From sequence record PQ850623.1: 64,000 nucleotides of DNA; one strand, written 5' to 3'. Below are positions 12 through 64,000 of this stretch, one piece after another; positions within the stretch are counted from its first letter, which is position 1, and each line of letters starts with the position of its first letter. The DNA comes from Escherichia phage RudolfBernhard_Bas96. Under the pieces are notes generated by a model that saw only the letters and a list, made by a program, of their open reading frames with translations, did no database searches and was not told where the DNA came from. The translations under genes and the position numbers were made by a program.

Positions 12-46
12 CAAAAAAAAAAAAAAACATCAGCTTTTTGAAGCTG
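12..46 (-). terminator. Putative rho-independent terminator for leftward transcription
   Basis: Hairpin CAGCTT-TTTG-AAGCTG (31-46) followed on the - strand by a 15-nt T run (A15 at 13-27 on +). Confidence 0.35.
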
Positions 47-57859: not shown

Positions 57860-58240
57860 TTACCCTTTTGGATTTTCTACAAAATAGTTATACATAGCCC
57901 GAACGAGCTTCTCTTTAATAACCTCACCATGACATGGTTTCGGATAACAGAAGCATTGTAAGGCTAGGCCTTTTTCATCAATGGCTTTATTACCAAGACG
58001 ATTGAGTTCATCCAGTACAACTGGATTACCTTTATCAATCTGTTCTTGCAGCCAGACTTTATACTTAGCAATTACTTGCTCTCTGGTTCCATGCTTACCA
58101 ATGACGAATGGATTGCCTAACGGTGAGCCACGACCAATGTACTCACCGTATTTACCGTGATGTTTATTAACAATGATAATCGGACGTGCGGATATACCCA
58201 ACAGAGCATTGGTGTTATCACCTAATGAGATAGTTTTCAT
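57860..58240 (-). CDS. DUF4326-like protein
   Basis: 126 aa; GNPF motif and LQCFCYPKPCHG Cys/His motif as I recall DUF4326. Confidence 0.4.
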   Translation of the reverse strand: MKTISLGDNTNALLGISARPIIIVNKHHGKYGEYIGRGSPLGNPFVIGKHGTREQVIAKYKVWLQEQIDKGNPVVLDELNRLGNKAIDEKGLALQCFCYPKPCHGEVIKEKLVRAMYNYFVENPKG

Positions 58241-58551
58241 GGTTTAAGTACCTGAAATGCGAATACAGGGCGTTTACTACGCCATTGATTCATAGCCAGT
58301 TCACTGGCAGGAGAGCCATCATGTAAGTCATATATGAATGTAATCATATACTCTGGTTTCTCTGGGAAGTTCTCTGTAGAGAATGGTAGACCTGCTTCCT
58401 TTAATACAGGAACCAGTGGTGATTTGGCTTCACAGTAAATAGTGAACTCTTCATTGAATGCTTTACTAGTCTGAGATACATAATCAATATTACGCATCAT
58501 CTTATCGACATCAGTAAATGTATTATCATGTACTACTACAATGTTATTCAC
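58237..58551 (-). CDS. Hypothetical early protein
   Basis: 104 aa; ATGA overlap with both neighbours. Confidence 0.45.
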   Translation of the reverse strand: MNNIVVVHDNTFTDVDKMMRNIDYVSQTSKAFNEEFTIYCEAKSPLVPVLKEAGLPFSTENFPEKPEYMITFIYDLHDGSPASELAMNQWRSKRPVFAFQVLKP

Positions 58552-58805
58552 TCTACTTTCTCCAGGGTTAGGTATACTGTATTTGGTTGAGGTACATAGT
58601 CACAAAAACCAATTTCCTCTTGTCTGCCACTAGACTTCCAAATACAGTTTTCGGTTAGCTTAGGCTTTCTACTAAATCCAATTAGTGAGGCATTCTTACT
58701 CTTCTGGGGACGAGGTAATAAGGCTACATATTTAACCCATAATGGGACTTCAATAGTTTGCCCCATATAGTTAAATGATTTAGTTACAGGGAATGTAATA
58801 ATCAC
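58548..58805 (-). CDS. Hypothetical early protein
   Basis: 85 aa; ATGA overlaps. Confidence 0.45.
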   Translation of the reverse strand: MIITFPVTKSFNYMGQTIEVPLWVKYVALLPRPQKSKNASLIGFSRKPKLTENCIWKSSGRQEEIGFCDYVPQPNTVYLTLEKVE

Positions 58806-59023
58806 TTTTGGTATCCTTGTATATAGTTAATACGGCGAATACGCTGAGTAGATGCCTTAACAGCCATCTGCTGATTCTCTTCTTTATGCTGATTCTTTAA
58901 CAACTTATCCCATTCTTCCTGGTTCCGTTGTTTCTGCAATATACGACTACAACGCTTATGATTGGCAACTCCACGTCCTTTCTTACAGACTGGGCAGATA
59001 CCATAATCGCTCGTGTACATCAT
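58802..59023 (-). CDS. Small Cys-containing basic protein
   Basis: 73 aa; CPVCKK...HKRC; Lys/Arg/Gln-rich C-terminus. Confidence 0.4.
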   Translation of the reverse strand: MMYTSDYGICPVCKKGRGVANHKRCSRILQKQRNQEEWDKLLKNQHKEENQQMAVKASTQRIRRINYIQGYQK

Positions 59024-59328
59024 TGGCTTAAAGCCTCCATTAATATTTTACGAATAACGTTAACATCAGATTCAGTACCAATTAAACCAACAGGTTTCTT
59101 TGTACTATCTGTGACAAAGGATGCAATCCTTTCCATCTCTGCTGTAATTAATTTGTCACCACTAATAAGACGATTACGAAGGTAGGCTTCATAAGCTACT
59201 TCTATATCCTCTACTGTGGTTCTTTCATTACGAGTGAATGGATTACTTAATGGGAAGGGTAAATGTATCCGTATATTCCTGTCAGCTACCTTAGCTAAGT
59301 GAGGAAGTATACATACTATTTCATTCAA
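59020..59328 (-). CDS. Hypothetical early protein, weakly DUF4326-like
   Basis: 102 aa; PLSNPF...VAYEAYLRNRL parallels the GNPF...KYKVWL block of 57860-58240 but lacks the Cys/His motif. Confidence 0.4.
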   Translation of the reverse strand: MNEIVCILPHLAKVADRNIRIHLPFPLSNPFTRNERTTVEDIEVAYEAYLRNRLISGDKLITAEMERIASFVTDSTKKPVGLIGTESDVNVIRKILMEALSQ

Positions 59329-59365
59329 GGTTCTTTCTCCTATTTAAATACATATCTAACTATTC

Positions 59366-59403
59366 AAAAATAAAAAATAGGAGCCTCCTATTGGAGGACT
59401 CCT
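59366..59403 (-). terminator. Rho-independent terminator
   Basis: Imperfect stem AGGAGCCTCC/GGAGGACTCCT; ATTTTTTATTTTT on the - strand. Confidence 0.6.
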
Positions 59404-59405
59404 TA

Positions 59406-59534
59406 CTATTTAATACATGGGTGATTGAAGGTAACAATCTTACGTACTGGTTCAGATGCCTGTTTCTTAGCAGCCAGACGTTCTTTCATCTTCTGTACGT
59501 CAGATTTATTACCTAAAATAAGTGATTTACGCAT
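59406..59534 (-). CDS. Small basic ORF (42 aa), unannotated in the ORF track
   Basis: ATG at 59534 with AAGGA RBS 9 nt upstream; Lys-rich product MRKSLILGNKSDVQKMKERLAAKK...; ends right at the terminator hairpin. Confidence 0.25.
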   Translation of the reverse strand: MRKSLILGNKSDVQKMKERLAAKKQASEPVRKIVTFNHPCIK

Positions 59535-59538
59535 TATA

Positions 59539-60012
59539 TTAATCCTTACCATGATTAGAGTGGAAACCATATTCATTGTTAGCTAACTCTCTAGCTTCTA
59601 CAGCTTCGTCGAAAGTGTTGAATCTACCTAAATGCTTTAGCTTACCATTAATCTTTATACGAACTCTCCATTTACCAGCTTCATATCTTACTCCCGTTGC
59701 ACCCGACATATTATTAGAAGCTCTACTTCTATTACGATTGTTATCTTGGGAAGATACTGCCCTTAGGTTTTCTAAACGGTCATCTGTTCGTATGTGATTG
59801 ATATGGTCAACCATATAACCGTCAGGCAATTTACCGTTGTGCATTTCCCAGATTATAGTAGCTGCCTTAAGATGTCGGTATTTTACTTGGACATATACAT
59901 ATCCACTGTACGTGTCGAAACTTCCAGCAATATCCCCACTTTTAGCTCTGCCACTACTAACCTTCCAGTAGAGTTTGCCTTCACGGTAGGAGAAGAATTC
60001 ATGCCAGTCCAT
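59539..60012 (-). CDS. HNH homing endonuclease with AP2 domain
   Basis: 157 aa; HNH core VDHINHIRTDDRLENLR; AP2-like GVRYEAGKWRVRIKINGKLKHLGRFNTFDEAVEAR. Confidence 0.7.
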   Translation of the reverse strand: MDWHEFFSYREGKLYWKVSSGRAKSGDIAGSFDTYSGYVYVQVKYRHLKAATIIWEMHNGKLPDGYMVDHINHIRTDDRLENLRAVSSQDNNRNRSRASNNMSGATGVRYEAGKWRVRIKINGKLKHLGRFNTFDEAVEARELANNEYGFHSNHGKD

Positions 60013-60205
60013 ATTTGGTTCCCATGATTAATGACTTACGCATGTTTAGTACTCCACATAAAGTTAAAAGGTTTATTGTTACGTACAATTCTTACAGCCA
60101 TTTGATAGCCATTGAGTTGCACAACACCATAGTGTCGCTTCTGTACTCCAGTGTGATATCTACGGAAGATACATTCTTCAATGGCATCCTCAATGTTAGT
60201 GAATA

Positions 60206-60394
60206 TCACTGGTTCCTCTTTGCAAACTCTTCTGCTTGTTGCTTGTAATACTGAGTCATTGCTTTTTTGTGTTTAACACTGGCAATGAGACACTCGATAG
60301 TAACGAATGGCAGCTTAGCAATAAGCAACCATTTATGACGTAACTTCCAGCCTAGAAAGTAGAAGATTACACAGAAAGCGATGAAGTCTAACAT
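60206..60394 (-). CDS. Small membrane protein
   Basis: 62 aa; N-terminal TM helix FIAFCVIFYFLGW. Confidence 0.4.
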   Translation of the reverse strand: MLDFIAFCVIFYFLGWKLRHKWLLIAKLPFVTIECLIASVKHKKAMTQYYKQQAEEFAKRNQ

Positions 60395-60494
60395 GGTTAA
60401 TTCCTCTTCTAAGATAGCTCTATTGAGATAGCTTTACTTTCTAGGGACTCTTCGTCGAAAACCCCTGAAAAGTAGAACTTATCTTATCGTCTAG

Positions 60495-60526
60495 TTAAAA
60501 ATAAAAGGACTACCCGAAGGTAGTCC
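60495..60526 (-). terminator. Rho-independent terminator
   Basis: Perfect 8-bp stem GGACTACC/GGTAGTCC with CGAA loop; TTTTATTTTT on the - strand. Confidence 0.7.
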
Positions 60527-60535
60527 AGTTGTTGA

Positions 60536-60919
60536 TTAGAAAGTCAGTTTACGAGCATATTTATTCTCGTCTGCTGGGATGTCAGCAGCCTCTGCTTTCA
60601 CACGACGAAGTTGAACTTGCAGGTTAATGATACCTTCTTCACCTGGTTTCAGGTTCTGAGCATATTCGATTAACTGTTCCAGCAAATCGTTCTGTGCACA
60701 ACGCATAGCACGGAAGTCAGCATTGCTGCTATTAGTAGGCAGTGGTTCCTGAGTATCCAGTGGGATACCAGTAGGCAGAGAGATGAATTTCTCATCATCA
60801 GAGCCTTCATTAGCAATATAACCAATGTTCAGCCAGAACTGAGCTTTTGGCTTATCAGTTTTAGCAGTAGAAGTAGCAGCAGCGTTAGATTGACCGAAAG
60901 TGAATTTTTGAATAGACAT
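60536..60919 (-). CDS. Early protein (hypothetical)
   Basis: ATG at 60919 with GGAGAG RBS (track start 61018 lies too close to the promoter hairpin); 127 aa. Confidence 0.5.
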
Positions 60920-61030
60920 TTTGTACTCTCCAGATTGATAAATGTTTGATTTATGGGTTTGTCCGTCGGTGACTAAACCCAAGAAAAGACTTAGGATTTC
61001 GATAAGAAGTGGATTCATTCTTATCCTTTA

Positions 61031-61043
61031 GACGCGGAGCGTC
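61031..61043 (-). promoter_or_regulatory. Candidate vRNAP early-promoter hairpin GACGC-GGA-GCGTC
   Basis: Perfect 5-bp inverted repeat around GGA on the template strand, between a terminator hairpin and the next early gene; preceded by ATCCTTTA. Confidence 0.5.
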
Positions 61044-61102
61044 TTGGTTTTTAGAAGTAGAAGTAAAGTAGATAAATATCTACTTTTGACTATCTATCTA
61101 AT

Positions 61103-61133
61103 CTTTATAAAAGGAGACTCCGAAGAGCCTCCT
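61103..61133 (-). terminator. Putative terminator
   Basis: Stem AGGAGACTC/GAGCCTCCT (one mismatch) with CGAA loop; modest T/A run. Confidence 0.45.
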
Positions 61134-61139
61134 ATTGAT

Positions 61140-61463
61140 TTAGTCTTTAGTCAGGATGTCGATTACTTTTGAATATTCTGCGTTATAGATACGAGCGTTC
61201 TCTGAATCTTTGCAGAATTCTTCGATACTTTTCTTACGCATAGTCTCGTTCATAGCTGTTTCTTCAGCTAATTTGTTTACGAATGTATGCATTTCTAATT
61301 TAGTACGAATGGCTTGTTTCTCTGCCATAGTAGATACATATGAGTTAAGCATACCTACTGCTTTAGTAGCTGTGCTGAATGTATCTGCAACAGTAGTAGC
61401 AGCAGAGTTAACAGTACCCAGTAAAGTTCCTGCGGTCATACGTACAGTAGCGGCAGTAGTCAT
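61140..61463 (-). CDS. Early protein (hypothetical)
   Basis: 107 aa; Thr/Ala-rich N-terminus; 50 nt downstream of a candidate promoter hairpin. Confidence 0.5.
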   Translation of the reverse strand: MTTAATVRMTAGTLLGTVNSAATTVADTFSTATKAVGMLNSYVSTMAEKQAIRTKLEMHTFVNKLAEETAMNETMRKKSIEEFCKDSENARIYNAEYSKVIDILTKD

Positions 61464-61506
61464 GATGATAGCTCCAATAGTTGATGATAGGACGACATGT
61501 CCATAA

Positions 61507-61519
61507 CATGCGGAGCATG
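61507..61519 (-). promoter_or_regulatory. Candidate vRNAP early-promoter hairpin CATGC-GGA-GCATG
   Basis: Perfect 5-bp inverted repeat around GGA in a 215-bp noncoding G-rich gap; preceded by TCCATAA. Confidence 0.5.
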
Positions 61520-61678
61520 TGTAACGTGTAAGGTGGGGTAGGGTAGTGGCTACAGGGTCAACATACCGGGGGGGCTAGTTGAGTGTAAGGGTGTAGCCCC
61601 AGCCACACCACTGTAGCCATACATAGCTATCACAATTTTGACATGCAAAAATATTATAACTATCCCACTTATAAGCAG

Positions 61679-62017
61679 TTAAATAGGAGGTGAGATTCGG
61701 GTGATAATACGAGCTATGTCAGAGTAATAATCAGGATGGTTAGGGTTACCACTACTATGTCTTACGGCAGCATCTTTGATAAACACATGAGCATAATCAC
61801 CTAATAAGATGAAGGCTGACTCACCATTTTGCAAGATAACTATCTTTGCATTGCTGTTAGTAAGAATCTTATGCCCTTGTGCAAAGTCTGCTAACTCTCC
61901 TGGTTCCATTATTAGTGTGGAATCCCCATAGGACATAAGGTGGATGATTGCTTTCTCTGGTTCAGAAGAGTAGTGCAGTAAGTCAGTACCACTCATGCCT
62001 AAGAGTTTAACGTTCAT
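61679..62017 (-). CDS. Early protein, member of tandem paralog array
   Basis: 112 aa; shares hydrophobic core motif with neighbours (STLIMEPGELADFAQG). Confidence 0.45.
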   Translation of the reverse strand: MNVKLLGMSGTDLLHYSSEPEKAIIHLMSYGDSTLIMEPGELADFAQGHKILTNSNAKIVILQNGESAFILLGDYAHVFIKDAAVRHSSGNPNHPDYYSDIARIITRISPPI

Positions 62018-62056
62018 GCTTCAGTACCTGTACCAGATATGGGGATGAGTTTAGTT

Positions 62057-62341
62057 TCACCGTCTTTCCTTATAGATTGGGGTGTTATCCTCGAAGGATA
62101 GGATGTACTTATCTGTATTGAGATGCCACGGACTGAATCTATCCTGCCAGGACATAGGTGTTCCTGGTTCAAGTAGATGTACTTCTGCTTTCTTATTGTA
62201 TAAGAAAAGCAATCCCTGTAGTTCGTGCAAGGACTGTTCGTCTGGAACCAGGATAAGTACATCAGCGTCTAGGTTAGCTACTTCTTTATGGTGGGTGTAT
62301 TCATCCCAAGACAGAACTGAATAAATTTTACTGATAACCAT
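62057..62341 (-). CDS. Early protein, member of tandem paralog array
   Basis: 94 aa; DADVLILVPDEQSLHELQGLLFLYNKKAEVHLLEP aligns with 63539-63829. Confidence 0.5.
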   Translation of the reverse strand: MVISKIYSVLSWDEYTHHKEVANLDADVLILVPDEQSLHELQGLLFLYNKKAEVHLLEPGTPMSWQDRFSPWHLNTDKYILSFEDNTPIYKERR

Positions 62342-62658
62342 TAGTAGCTCTCGTCGCTAGATAAATATGAGGAAGGATAGAGGGTAATGAGTCTACCTGT
62401 AAGAGTAGTATCTACCATAGGCTCACAAGTGGAATAGATATATACCCGTGCAAACTCAGATACTTCAACCGATGTATCTATCTTAGTGAATGTAATTGGT
62501 ATGCCTAACATTAGACAAGAACCAATAAGCTCATCAGCTTCTTCACTAGGTTCATATAAGATAGTAGCACCATCCAGTTTACCACTTAAGCAATCTTGCT
62601 TAGTTACCTTACTGAGATAGCAGCTTGTACTTAGTGCAATTAATGAGTAGAAGTGCAT
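62341..62658 (-). CDS. Early protein, member of tandem paralog array
   Basis: 105 aa; GATILYEPSEEADELIGSCLMLG core. Confidence 0.45.
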   Translation of the reverse strand: MHFYSLIALSTSCYLSKVTKQDCLSGKLDGATILYEPSEEADELIGSCLMLGIPITFTKIDTSVEVSEFARVYIYSTCEPMVDTTLTGRLITLYPSSYLSSDESY

Positions 62659-62661
62659 AAC

Positions 62662-62976
62662 TTACATCCTTACATAGTAGTAACGGTACTCATCGTTCTC
62701 ATAGCGGCTACCCCATTGGTATTCATCAGATACCATCATGTACGGGATAGGGTCATTAGCGTTATAGTTGGTATAGACAGAAGGAGGAATGATACATACA
62801 ACCTTACGGTCATTACCTGCTAGGAAGAGTTGGCCCCTTACTTCATGATAATCTTCTAAGGTAGGAACCAGTATTACTTGTTGAGGGTTGCTGTTCATGA
62901 CTTCTTCTAAAGTGAAGTCGGTTGTGTACATGGACTCCCCCTTAACAAAACTGGGGACGGTCATTATGAATTTCAT
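62662..62976 (-). CDS. Early protein, member of tandem paralog array
   Basis: ATG at 62976 preceded by AGGAAGGA RBS (track start 63051 overlaps the upstream gene); QQVILVPTLEDYHEVRGQLFLAG core. Confidence 0.5.
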   Translation of the reverse strand: MKFIMTVPSFVKGESMYTTDFTLEEVMNSNPQQVILVPTLEDYHEVRGQLFLAGNDRKVVCIIPPSVYTNYNANDPIPYMMVSDEYQWGSRYENDEYRYYYVRM

Positions 62977-63337
62977 GATTAATTTTCCTTCCTTTAGGGA
63001 TAGGTCTGAAGAAAATGGAAAGTGTTTTATTAAAGAGGTTATGTTCAACAATCATTTCCCAGCCAGGTACTTTATAGAACCTAACTCCTGGGAAGAATGT
63101 TTCGAAGTCTACATACTCAGTAAGGTCGTATACAACTGGTTCAGTAAGTATACGCGTATTGATTTGTAGGTTACTTAAGAAAAATGAACCAACTATCTCA
63201 TGGGATTCTTCGCAGTCTGGTAGGAAGACTACATGTTTAGATAGGAACTTACTTACCATCTCTGGTTCCCCTAGGTAGTAGGGTTCCTGCTTACGTAGTA
63301 CTCCAGTAATATCAATATCAAAAGCGTAGATGCACAT
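62942..63337 (-). CDS. Early protein, member of tandem paralog array
   Basis: 131 aa; GGAGGT RBS; KHVVFLPDCEESHEIVGSFFLSN core. Confidence 0.5.
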   Translation of the reverse strand: MCIYAFDIDITGVLRKQEPYYLGEPEMVSKFLSKHVVFLPDCEESHEIVGSFFLSNLQINTRILTEPVVYDLTEYVDFETFFPGVRFYKVPGWEMIVEHNLFNKTLSIFFRPIPKGRKINHEIHNDRPQFC

Positions 63338-63349
63338 AATTGCATACCT

Positions 63350-63389
63350 CCAGAAAAAGAAATGGGGTAGAGCCTCTCGACCCTACCCC
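63350..63389 (-). terminator. Terminator/attenuator-like hairpin directly upstream of an early gene RBS
   Basis: Stem GGGGTAG/CTACCCC enclosing a 12-nt loop, followed on the - strand by ATTTCTTTTTCTGGAGGT (T run merging into the RBS). Confidence 0.4.
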
Positions 63390-63445
63390 TTACCGTTTTC
63401 AATCACGGGTCAGTTCATCCCCCTAGGTACTTATGTACCGTTAGA

Positions 63446-63458
63446 CCTACGGAGTAGG
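63446..63458 (-). promoter_or_regulatory. Candidate vRNAP early-promoter hairpin CCTAC-GGA-GTAGG
   Basis: Perfect 5-bp inverted repeat around GGA on the template strand, between the first two early genes in the window. Confidence 0.45.
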
Positions 63459-63538
63459 AAAGGAGCCGGGGAACCCTGACTGTAGAAGTTATTAACTCTT
63501 TACGAGTACCGCCACTGTCTACTAGGCGGTATGACTAA

Positions 63539-63829
63539 TCACATCATCACCGTCATCCGAACGCTGTCTTTGCTTCGTTTGATGGAGACACTATGAGGTA
63601 ATTTTGTGAAGAACACAAGAGCTGAAAATCGTTTTTCTAAAGAGTAAGTTTCTCTTGGTTCTAAAATCTTAATGCCTGGACGATTCTCTAACAGCATCAT
63701 CCCAGCTAATTCATGATAGGTATCTTCATCATGTGTAATGATAATATCATCCGGTAGAATACCAGCCTTGGTGTGGTCTAGCTCTTTGTATTCATCTTTA
63801 GAGTCGTGGACTCTCATATAGATTCTCAA
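63539..63829 (-). CDS. Early protein, member of tandem paralog array
   Basis: 96 aa; PDDIIITHDEDTYHELAGMMLLENRPGIKILEP aligns with 62057-62341. Confidence 0.5.
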   Translation of the reverse strand: MRIYMRVHDSKDEYKELDHTKAGILPDDIIITHDEDTYHELAGMMLLENRPGIKILEPRETYSLEKRFSALVFFTKLPHSVSIKRSKDSVRMTVMM

Positions 63830-64000
63830 GATAATACTCCTTGGGGAATAGGGTCATCGGAACATTACATACTATTTAGTATCATGAACTTTTTCTATAT
63901 CATGACTAAAGTGTAACTGTATGATATGGTTTCTACAAGGGGTATCTCACCCCAAGAAAAGAATCTTCGTTAATAGACATAACTTTGTAGAGAGATAAGT

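Follow-up and report, generated by a model that had tools for sequence, protein, structure and literature searches.

In the 64,000-nucleotide stretch of Escherichia phage RudolfBernhard_Bas96 analysed here (PQ850623.1; referred to below as the window), a hairpin followed by a run of T residues on the minus strand ends directly at the Shine-Dalgarno sequence of a gp71-like open reading frame (ORF), 62942-63337. On balance we favour the view that this hairpin and its U-tract are a genuine Rho-independent (intrinsic) terminator acting on the sense RNA of the right-end gene cluster, and that the terminator is leaky: it would end most transcripts of the preceding gp70-like gene with a structured 3′ domain, and meter read-through into the array of small paralogous genes that begins with the gp71-like ORF. 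The hairpin is the 3′ module of a conserved structured sense-strand RNA of about 140 nucleotides (nt), or about 190 nt when an upstream hairpin, hp0, is included. This context is of more interest than the hairpin itself. The locus is a compact, conserved and covarying RNA that every transcript into the right-end genes (gp70-72, and the paralogue expansions of G7C-like phages) would cross, and the RNA motif surrounding the hairpin is a moderately interesting new candidate.

An earlier note on this DNA had drawn attention to the terminator-like hairpin and T-run directly before the Shine-Dalgarno sequence of ORF 62942-63337, and this observation was confirmed by folding energy, by covariation in the stem and by the invariance of the U-tract. 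Read as DNA on the minus strand, the hairpin consists of a 5′ arm GGGGTAGGGTC (63389-63379), a GAGA loop (63378-63375) and a 3′ arm GGCTCTACCCC (63374-63364). Seven of the 11 pairs in the stem are G-C and two are G·U. The 3′ arm is followed by an A (63363), the T-run TTTCTTTTT (63362-63354; A and T-run together can also be written A+UUUCUUUUU, 63363-63354), CT and GGAGG, so that the T-run and the Shine-Dalgarno sequence are 2 nt apart. The hairpin with its tail has a folding energy of −21.3 kcal/mol, compared with −9.5 ± 2.3 kcal/mol for 200 dinucleotide shuffles (z = −5.07), none of which was as stable (0/200). A terminator scan of 58000-64000 found nine terminator-like sites, against 3.9 ± 1.9 in shuffled sequence, and this hairpin had the longest stem among them. 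It lies 150 nt past the gp70-like stop codon, on the same strand, and occupies the same position in N4, KP8, Moo19 and Jgk1. GenBank records of PhAPEC5, PhAPEC7, SPSP, AL25 and Jura carry an automated ‘terminator’ feature (ARNold-type tools) at the same site, and the same gp71-like start codon is annotated in PhAPEC5 and Mimir124. The hairpin by itself is nothing unusual, and annotation pipelines already flag it in relatives.

Elsewhere in the window, three other strong terminator-like hairpins (54830-54805, 53636-53614 and 46882-46861, all minus strand) have a Shine-Dalgarno sequence and start codon within 14-23 nt. Several terminators of this genome have UUCG tetraloops; the loop of the hairpin at 63364-63389 is of the GNRA type.

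Every lineage with a gp70/gp71 pair has a hairpin and U-tract right before the gp71 ribosome-binding site, with stem sequences that differ between lineages. Pairing is kept through compensatory changes in Gamaleyavirus, Moovirus, Jgk1, Kaypoctavirus and N4. The stem is GGGGUAG(G/A)GUC ... GGCUCUACCCC in the window and G7C, GGGGCAUAGUC ... GGCUAUGCCCC in Moo19 and GGGGACUAGUC ... GGCUAGUCCCC in Jgk1, each followed by the tail AUUUCUUUUU. KP8 has the stem-loop GGGAGGCCCA-CUGCAA-UGGGUCUCCC with tail UUUUUCUUU, and N4 has GGGAGCC-AAAU-GGCUCCC with tail UUUUUCUUUU; the tails of these two phages share the form UUUUUCUUU(U), that is, U5CU3-4. Among gamaleyaviruses, changes in the stem are limited to A-U to G·U and U-A to U·G. 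The terminator helix was 99.5% paired, with three double-change pairs, in an alignment of 18 sequences. In a second alignment, comprising 19 sequences from all lineages, 8 of its 11 pairs showed double changes; this alignment was fitted to a covariance model, and its pair counts lean towards the structure and are upper estimates. The U-tract is unpaired and non-coding, yet is invariant in 18 of 18 distinct Gamaleyavirus, Moovirus and Jgk1 sequences. Compensatory changes in the stem, together with the kept U-tract, form the pattern expected from selection on an intrinsic terminator.

No sigma70-like promoter was found in the spacer between the gp70-like and gp71-like genes (63338-63538), and the 2 nt between T-run and Shine-Dalgarno sequence leave no room for a promoter downstream of the terminator. 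The gp71-like gene and the paralogues packed behind it could therefore be transcribed only by read-through. The suggestion in the earlier note that the hairpin attenuates the paralogue array thus stands as far as the arrangement goes, which is of the attenuator type (terminator, then ribosome-binding site, with no promoter space); early timing through a promoter hairpin, the other part of that suggestion, does not, as described below. We infer that transcription does terminate at this site, and does so only in part. Transcription would probably begin before gp70 and in most cases stop at the U-tract, and the product of termination would be a gp70 message whose 3′ end is structured and protected by the hairpin. 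Read-through transcripts would be the sole source of mRNA for the gp71-like gene and the downstream paralogues, and the element would act as a leaky valve that sets, and possibly times, gp70-like expression relative to that of the genes downstream. The majority of the terminators mapped in LUZ7, an N4-like phage, are leaky; they lie within operons, whose output they shape (PMC9163698).

The sequence upstream of gp70 includes a block that is conserved between N4 and G7C, with a hairpin (63953-63939) and, about 50 nt ahead of the start codon, a weak sigma70-like −10 element, TACAAT in N4 and KP8 and CATGAT in the window. This block is compatible with transcription by the host polymerase, for which the hairpin before gp71 would be a textbook terminator. 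The block at 63953-63939 (minus strand) reads GATTCTTTTCTT-GGGGT-loop-ACCCC-TTG.AGAAAC and lies in the divergent region between gp69 and gp70 (63830-64000). It is 96-97% identical among gamaleyaviruses, its stem is degenerate in KP8, and it is terminator-like on neither strand; it may be a late or divergent promoter element.

The structured RNA occupies the spacer between the gp70-like gene and the gp71-like paralogue array. In the model, hp0 comes first, then a UAAUAAC box and the long-range helix P1, which closes a junction containing two small hairpins (hpP and hp2); hp3 and the terminator follow (Table 1). RNAalifold, run on 14 sequences, returned the small hairpins and the long-range helix P1 enclosing hpP and hp2. 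With a hand-specified structure, 98.0% of cells paired in the 18 distinct sequences, and nine pairs showed double changes, compared with 3.9 ± 1.1 after column shuffling (0/500 shuffles as high); slid registers gave 0-2. Across the 19 distinct sequences of all lineages, 97.6% of cells paired (74.2 ± 1.4% when shuffled) and 29 of 37 pairs were double-changed (19.3 ± 2.1 when shuffled, 0/500), with 1-6 in slid registers. The cells include 63 G·U and only 6 A·C combinations, and for the opposite strand pairing would extend to only about 87-88% of cells. These counts therefore indicate that the fold is a property of the sense transcript, as RNA, rather than of the opposite strand or of symmetric DNA cruciforms.

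Helix P1 has double changes in 10 of its 12 pairs in the 19-sequence alignment. The P1b pair at columns 27/93 of the 18-sequence alignment is C:G in nine, A:U in four and G:U in four of the distinct sequences, and the pair at columns 29/91 changes from C:G to U:A in the Moo19 clade (Moo19 and L032). The helices are formed by CACCCA/UGGGUG and GCUAC/GUAGU in N4 and by UUCAGG/CUUGGA in the KP8 group, where three variants (UUUCAGG, UUUCGAG and UUCCGGG) each pair with (C/U)UUGGAU. In hp3 a U-A pair is swapped for A-U in Moo19 and L032, and all four pairs are double-changed across lineages in the 19-sequence alignment. The stem of hpP is kept while its loop varies (UCC, CUA, UAC, UUCG or CUGCAA). 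The content of the junction is not conserved, N4 having a 24-nt stretch in place of both inner hairpins. Within the junction, GGCUCCUUU is predicted to be unpaired. By contrast with these covarying parts, the hp0 stem CCGCC/GGCGG is invariant in all lineages, N4 and KP8 included, and the 50-nt block containing it is 99.3% identical among 17 relatives; such constancy, with no covariation, suggests that the sequence itself is recognized and that pairing is not all that matters. The AAUAAC of the UAAUAAC box is kept in nearly all lineages, with UAGUAAC in Jgk1 and a few gamaleyaviruses. An extra hairpin lies between hp0 and the box in Moo19, Jgk1 and KP8.

Three other interpretations of these motifs were tried and rejected. 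UAAUAAC is not a recurrent (middle) promoter motif, as its copies in the window lack extended similarity or a consistent intergenic position. A hammerhead or k-turn reading of GAUGA...CUGA did not fit the strand arrangement on inspection and had no Rfam support. Sequestration of the Shine-Dalgarno sequence by CUCC or ACUUCU, judged by eye and from an outer helix in RNAalifold, would involve 4 base pairs (bp) in the window, as also in N4, and 6 bp in both Moo19 and KP8, and was too inconsistent.

Across 55 gamaleyavirus records, identity in the 200-nt spacer is 92-100%. When 17 relatives were profiled, it was the best-conserved stretch of the region (93-99% identical), compared with 69-92% for the gp71-like coding sequence and values down to about 20-55% for the distal paralogues. 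A covariance model built without N4 or KP8 gave full-length matches in the KP8 group (E ~4e-7) and in N4 and its relatives (E ~1e-4), in both cases exactly at the gp70/gp71 spacer. The element is found in all four named Enquatrovirinae genera and in the unclassified Jgk1. In the 64-kb window it is single-copy, the next match of the model being merely the reverse complement of the terminator. No Rfam 15 family was matched: searches at E ≤ 1 over 60000-64000 and at E ≤ 10 over 63320-63560 returned only sub-threshold noise, and the best match in the spacer was Fluoride, at 13.1 bits against a threshold of 34. A U6atac match at 60497-60608 corresponds to a different terminator. The element is thus a candidate structured RNA family absent from Rfam, subfamily-wide, single-copy and capped by a terminator-like hairpin.

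A coding function for the spacer was also considered and rejected, as small ORFs annotated there are broken by 1-nt indels among relatives and substitutions follow base-pairing, not codons. Small genes are annotated in the spacer of AlfredRasser (L034 466-588, sense) and Mimir124 (L002 2219-2335, antisense); the same patterns of change indicate that they are over-predictions lying on the structured RNA.

Table 1. Elements of the gp70/gp71 locus and hairpin promoters of the virion RNA polymerase (vRNAP) type in the window
Feature	Position	Strand	Sequence and remarks
gp70-like ORF	63539..63829	-	phrog_7213; gene upstream of the element; member of the paralogue family
hp0	63507..63531	-	UACCGCC-11 nt-GGCGGUA; starts 8 nt past the gp70-like stop codon (63541-63539)
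UAAUAAC box	63488..63494	-	5′ edge of the modelled element
P1, 5′ strands	63468..63480	-	Long-range helix; P1a GUCAG 63480-63476, G, P1b GUUCCCC 63474-63468
Single-stranded GGCUCCUUU	63459..63467	-	Invariant; CUCC core kept in N4 and KP8
hpP	63446..63458	-	CCUAC-UCC-GUAGG; stem-loop within the P1 junction
hp2	63426..63439	-	GGUAC-AUAA-GUACC; G-C to A-U compensatory swap, 8 versus 10 of 18 distinct sequences
P1, 3′ strands	63409..63423	-	P1b GGGGGAU 63423-63417, GAA, P1a CUGAC 63413-63409; holds conserved GAUGA 63419-63415
hp3	63393..63408	-	CCGU-GAUUGAAA-ACGG; from RNAalifold
Predicted terminator stem-loop	63364..63389	-	GGGGUAGGGUC-GAGA-GGCUCUACCCC; 11 bp; GNRA-type loop
A + U-tract	63354..63363	-	AUUUCUUUUU; predicted release signal of the intrinsic terminator; 8 U in 10 nt
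Shine-Dalgarno sequence and start codon	63335..63351	-	GGAGG 63351-63347, 9-nt spacer, ATG 63337-63335; start of gp71-like ORF 62942-63337
gp71-like ORF and four further paralogues	61679..63337	-	62942-63337, 62662-62976, 62341-62658, 62057-62341, 61679-62017; downstream of the terminator
Canonical vRNAP-type hairpin promoters	61519-61507; 61043-61031; 57501-57489	-	CATGC-TCC-GCATG; GACGC-TCC-GCGTC; GGTGC-TCC-GCACC; form xxxGC-TCC-GCxxx, GG 4 nt downstream

Region 61500-64000 matched 58 phage records, nearly all of them Gamaleyavirus (G7C-like, Schitoviridae) and mostly at 83-93% identity. In window orientation, the homologous stretch of PhAPEC5 contains the paralogue array, the ARNold ‘terminator’, an N4 gp70-like gene, and then divergent gp69-like and terminase genes; in Mimir124 the same paralogue array is followed by a 403-bp direct terminal repeat. 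This gene order shows that the window is the reverse complement of the usual genome orientation. Placed by colinearity, the terminal repeat would lie at about 61607-61205. The hairpin locus is the right-end gp70/gp71-like cluster, beside gp69 and terminase and upstream of the terminal repeat, and the description of ORF 62942-63337 in the earlier note as an early gene was not upheld. Because the assembly is permuted, the terminal repeat and the true early genes come after the cluster in the window. The right end of N4 is the last DNA to enter the cell (PMC3715699), from which its genes would not be expected to be early. That end carries gp70 (69055-69363), a 210-nt spacer, gp71 and gp72, and the distance from element to terminal repeat differs, being about 1.7 kb in the window and a few hundred bases in N4. 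In the literature searched, transcription of N4 gp70-72 and a right-end promoter or terminator were not described.

ORF 62942-63337, a real gene, has homologues in phrog_9160 and in PhAPEC5_73, a protein whose annotation likens it to N4 gp71. The ORF is one of six paralogues between 63829 and 61679: PHROG cross-hits join several of them, and the other five proteins are 17-24% identical to the gp71-like protein. All six, the gp70-like gene among them, are small (94-131 amino acids) and have a common conserved E..G...L core. The proteins had no Pfam matches and matched only PHROGs of unknown function; all 157 database homologues were at least 74% identical and none was named. The AlphaFold2 model was poor (pLDDT 62.9), and Foldseek found no match in the PDB at E ≤ 0.001. 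Nucleotide conservation among relatives drops steadily down the array, from about 90% to about 20-40%. This gradient suggests that the distal copies turn over rapidly, as for accessory or anti-defence cargo.

The predicted terminator resembles the intrinsic terminators of E. coli and its phages, including the leaky TE and Tφ terminators of T7 and those of LUZ7 (PMC9163698), in its GC-rich 11-bp stem, tetraloop and immediate U-rich tract, in its position after a co-oriented gene and in the dependence of downstream genes on read-through. It differs in that its stem forms the last helix in a far larger, conserved and covarying fold and that an A comes first after the stem, and its activity is predicted from sequence. 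Several points weigh against a leaky terminator. The first base 3′ of the stem is A, not U, in gamaleyaviruses, and the pair counts of the 19-sequence alignment lean towards the fitted structure. A literature search found no Enquatrovirinae transcriptome, and no 3′ ends or read-through for the right-end cluster. Three RNA polymerases act one after another in N4-like phages, and a terminator signal may have a different effect on the single-subunit phage polymerases. Finally, a constitutive valve leaves unexplained the roughly 100 nt of conserved covarying fold and the invariant single-stranded UAAUAAC, CUCC and GAUGA motifs.

One alternative is a conditional attenuator, in which the upstream fold would switch read-through according to the stage of infection by binding a ligand, a protein of phage or host origin, or the polymerase during elongation (riboswitch-like, protein-dependent or like put of HK022). 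The element has the layout of a cis-regulatory leader (multi-helix domain, terminator, ribosome-binding site), and the fold covaries around invariant unpaired motifs. It is single-copy, always stands before a gp71 homologue, and is better conserved than the surrounding proteins. The order of its modules and the strongly conserved multi-helix domain with invariant unpaired nucleotides are also those of riboswitch and attenuator expression platforms. Such platforms differ in having a conserved antiterminator pairing and an Rfam family, and the inner junction here is replaceable, N4 lacking the two hairpins. When each terminator arm was compared with the upstream RNA by RNAduplex in six lineages, no conserved, mutually exclusive antiterminator was found. 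Alternative duplexes with the 5′ arm reached −15 kcal/mol in the window, −8.9 in the pSb-1 type and −6.1 in N4, and fell at non-homologous sites in Moo19, Jgk1 and KP8. A riboswitch-style antiterminator formed by UCCUACUCC, which accounts for the −15 kcal/mol pairing, was rejected because it occurs in the window only. There was likewise no match to a riboswitch or leader in Rfam. We regard a conditional attenuator as unlikely; the lack of a conserved antiterminator weakens it, but it stays compatible with an RNA that acts through a protein or on the polymerase.

For the latter type of action, put of HK022 and other cis-acting processive antitermination RNAs offer a precedent, as phage structured RNAs just upstream of terminators that are to be read through, with no need for an alternative pairing. 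The put RNA consists of two stem-loops near a promoter and acts on host RNA polymerase; the element described here has no demonstrated homology to it in sequence or architecture. In a wider form of the same idea, the whole spacer (63354-63531) would be an undescribed class of phage cis-regulatory RNA found in all Enquatrovirinae, whose junction (UAAUAAC, CUCC, GAUGA) senses a factor or acts on the polymerase and so decides whether the terminator is used, gating accessory genes by time or by polymerase. We hold this, too, to be a tentative proposal with the odds against it.

A rather doubtful alternative is that the terminated RNA is itself the product: a stable small RNA, derived from the gp70 3′ untranslated region or from a transcript of its own, with host or phage mRNAs as its targets in trans. 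Its 3′ end, and a possible Hfq-binding module, would then be formed by the terminator and U-tail, and read-through into the array would be secondary. The strong terminator, long U-tail and compact conserved fold would suit such an RNA, the invariant, C/U-rich single-stranded GGCUCCUUU resembles an anti-Shine-Dalgarno seed, and the non-coding stretch is better conserved than its flanks. LUZ7 has an intergenic region with abundant terminator-ended small non-coding RNAs, and its candidates sRNA1-3 share with the present element a structured non-coding stretch, a terminator with a long U-tail and better conservation than neighbouring genes (PMC9163698). The element differs from 3′ untranslated region-derived and other terminator-ended small RNAs in directly preceding a ribosome-binding site, and it is a sequence prediction. 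No promoter or processing site that would give a 5′ end was identified: the spacer has no sigma70-like site, and UAAUAAC does not recur as a promoter motif. A blastn search of 5,426 E. coli genomes, made as a check for host mimicry, found nothing similar. A trans-acting RNA would moreover leave the gp71-like array without evident means of being transcribed.

The earlier note had also taken 63446-63458 (hpP) for a promoter hairpin. In the model that follows from this, vRNAP would initiate early transcription there, the terminator about 85 nt further on would attenuate it, and expression of an early paralogue array would thus be timed. The inverted repeat, CCTAC-TCC-GTAGG, does exist, and in the window it shares with the N4 vRNAP promoters P1-P3 (unrelated to helix P1) and with the three canonical promoters in Table 1 a perfect 5-bp stem, a 3-nt loop and a template loop GGA. 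Promoters of vRNAP need a 5-7-bp stem, a 3-nt loop with a G:C closing pair and, on the template, a purine at −11, G at −10, G at −8 and C at +1 (PMC4496689). In the window the closing pair and the −11 and −10 bases fit, but where G and C are required the template strand carries an A (−8, position 63449) and a T (+1, position 63441). The loop is CTA in the commonest haplotype among relatives (template TAG, with loss of the −10 G) and TAC in L030 (template centre T, pyrimidine at −11). In Jgk1 the loop has 4 nt, the Moo19 clade has an 8-bp stem and a 6-nt loop, and in N4 the hairpin is absent. As the covarying helix P1 encloses the hairpin and has its 5′ strand upstream of it, the RNA must start upstream of the hairpin. 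The hairpin also lies in the right-end cluster and not in the early region (leftmost 10% of the genome). The promoter role was rejected on these grounds, namely the −8 and +1 bases, the variable loop, its absence from N4, its enclosure in P1 and the wrong genome end, and initiation by vRNAP at this site is very improbable.

Only four perfect 5-bp/3-nt hairpins with a TCC loop occur on the gene strand of the window, and the other three are the canonical promoters. They lie in or near the terminal repeat and the early genes, the first of them within the inferred terminal repeat, and all have −8 G and +1 C. They match the KP8/N4 consensus and resemble promoters of KP8 (ACGTTGCTCCGCAACCTATGGA and others; TGG in the KP8 sites) (PMC6950046). 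The comparison corrects a tempting misannotation: the permuted assembly sets the right-end cluster beside the early region, where a hairpin with a GGA template loop mimics a virion-polymerase promoter.

Least probable of all is a cis element acting in DNA, for instance an origin of replication or a signal for packaging or recombination, with inverted repeats that only happen to look like a terminator. It would suit the very high conservation of this non-coding sequence, which lies near the genome end and the terminase genes, and N4 uses extruded DNA hairpins and needs its virion polymerase for replication (PMC4496689, PMC13434306), but the strand-asymmetric pairing (63 G·U against 6 A·C cells), the invariant U-tract, which fits an RNA release signal, and the variable distance to the terminal repeat noted above all argue against it.

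The best sigma70-like promoter match of the 6-kb region is TTAACT-18-TATAAT at 61682-61653 (minus strand, 10/12 matches), at the end of the paralogue array and facing the terminal repeat; it would fire towards the terminus on the linear genome and into the early genes on concatemers. At the very start of the window (~13-27, plus strand), AAATAAC is followed by 15 consecutive A residues. Finally, inspection by eye suggests an HNH-type motif, DHINHIRTDDRLENLR, in a 157-amino-acid ORF at 59539-60012 (minus strand), together with an AP2-like look of its C-terminal part; the ORF may encode a homing endonuclease inserted among the early genes.

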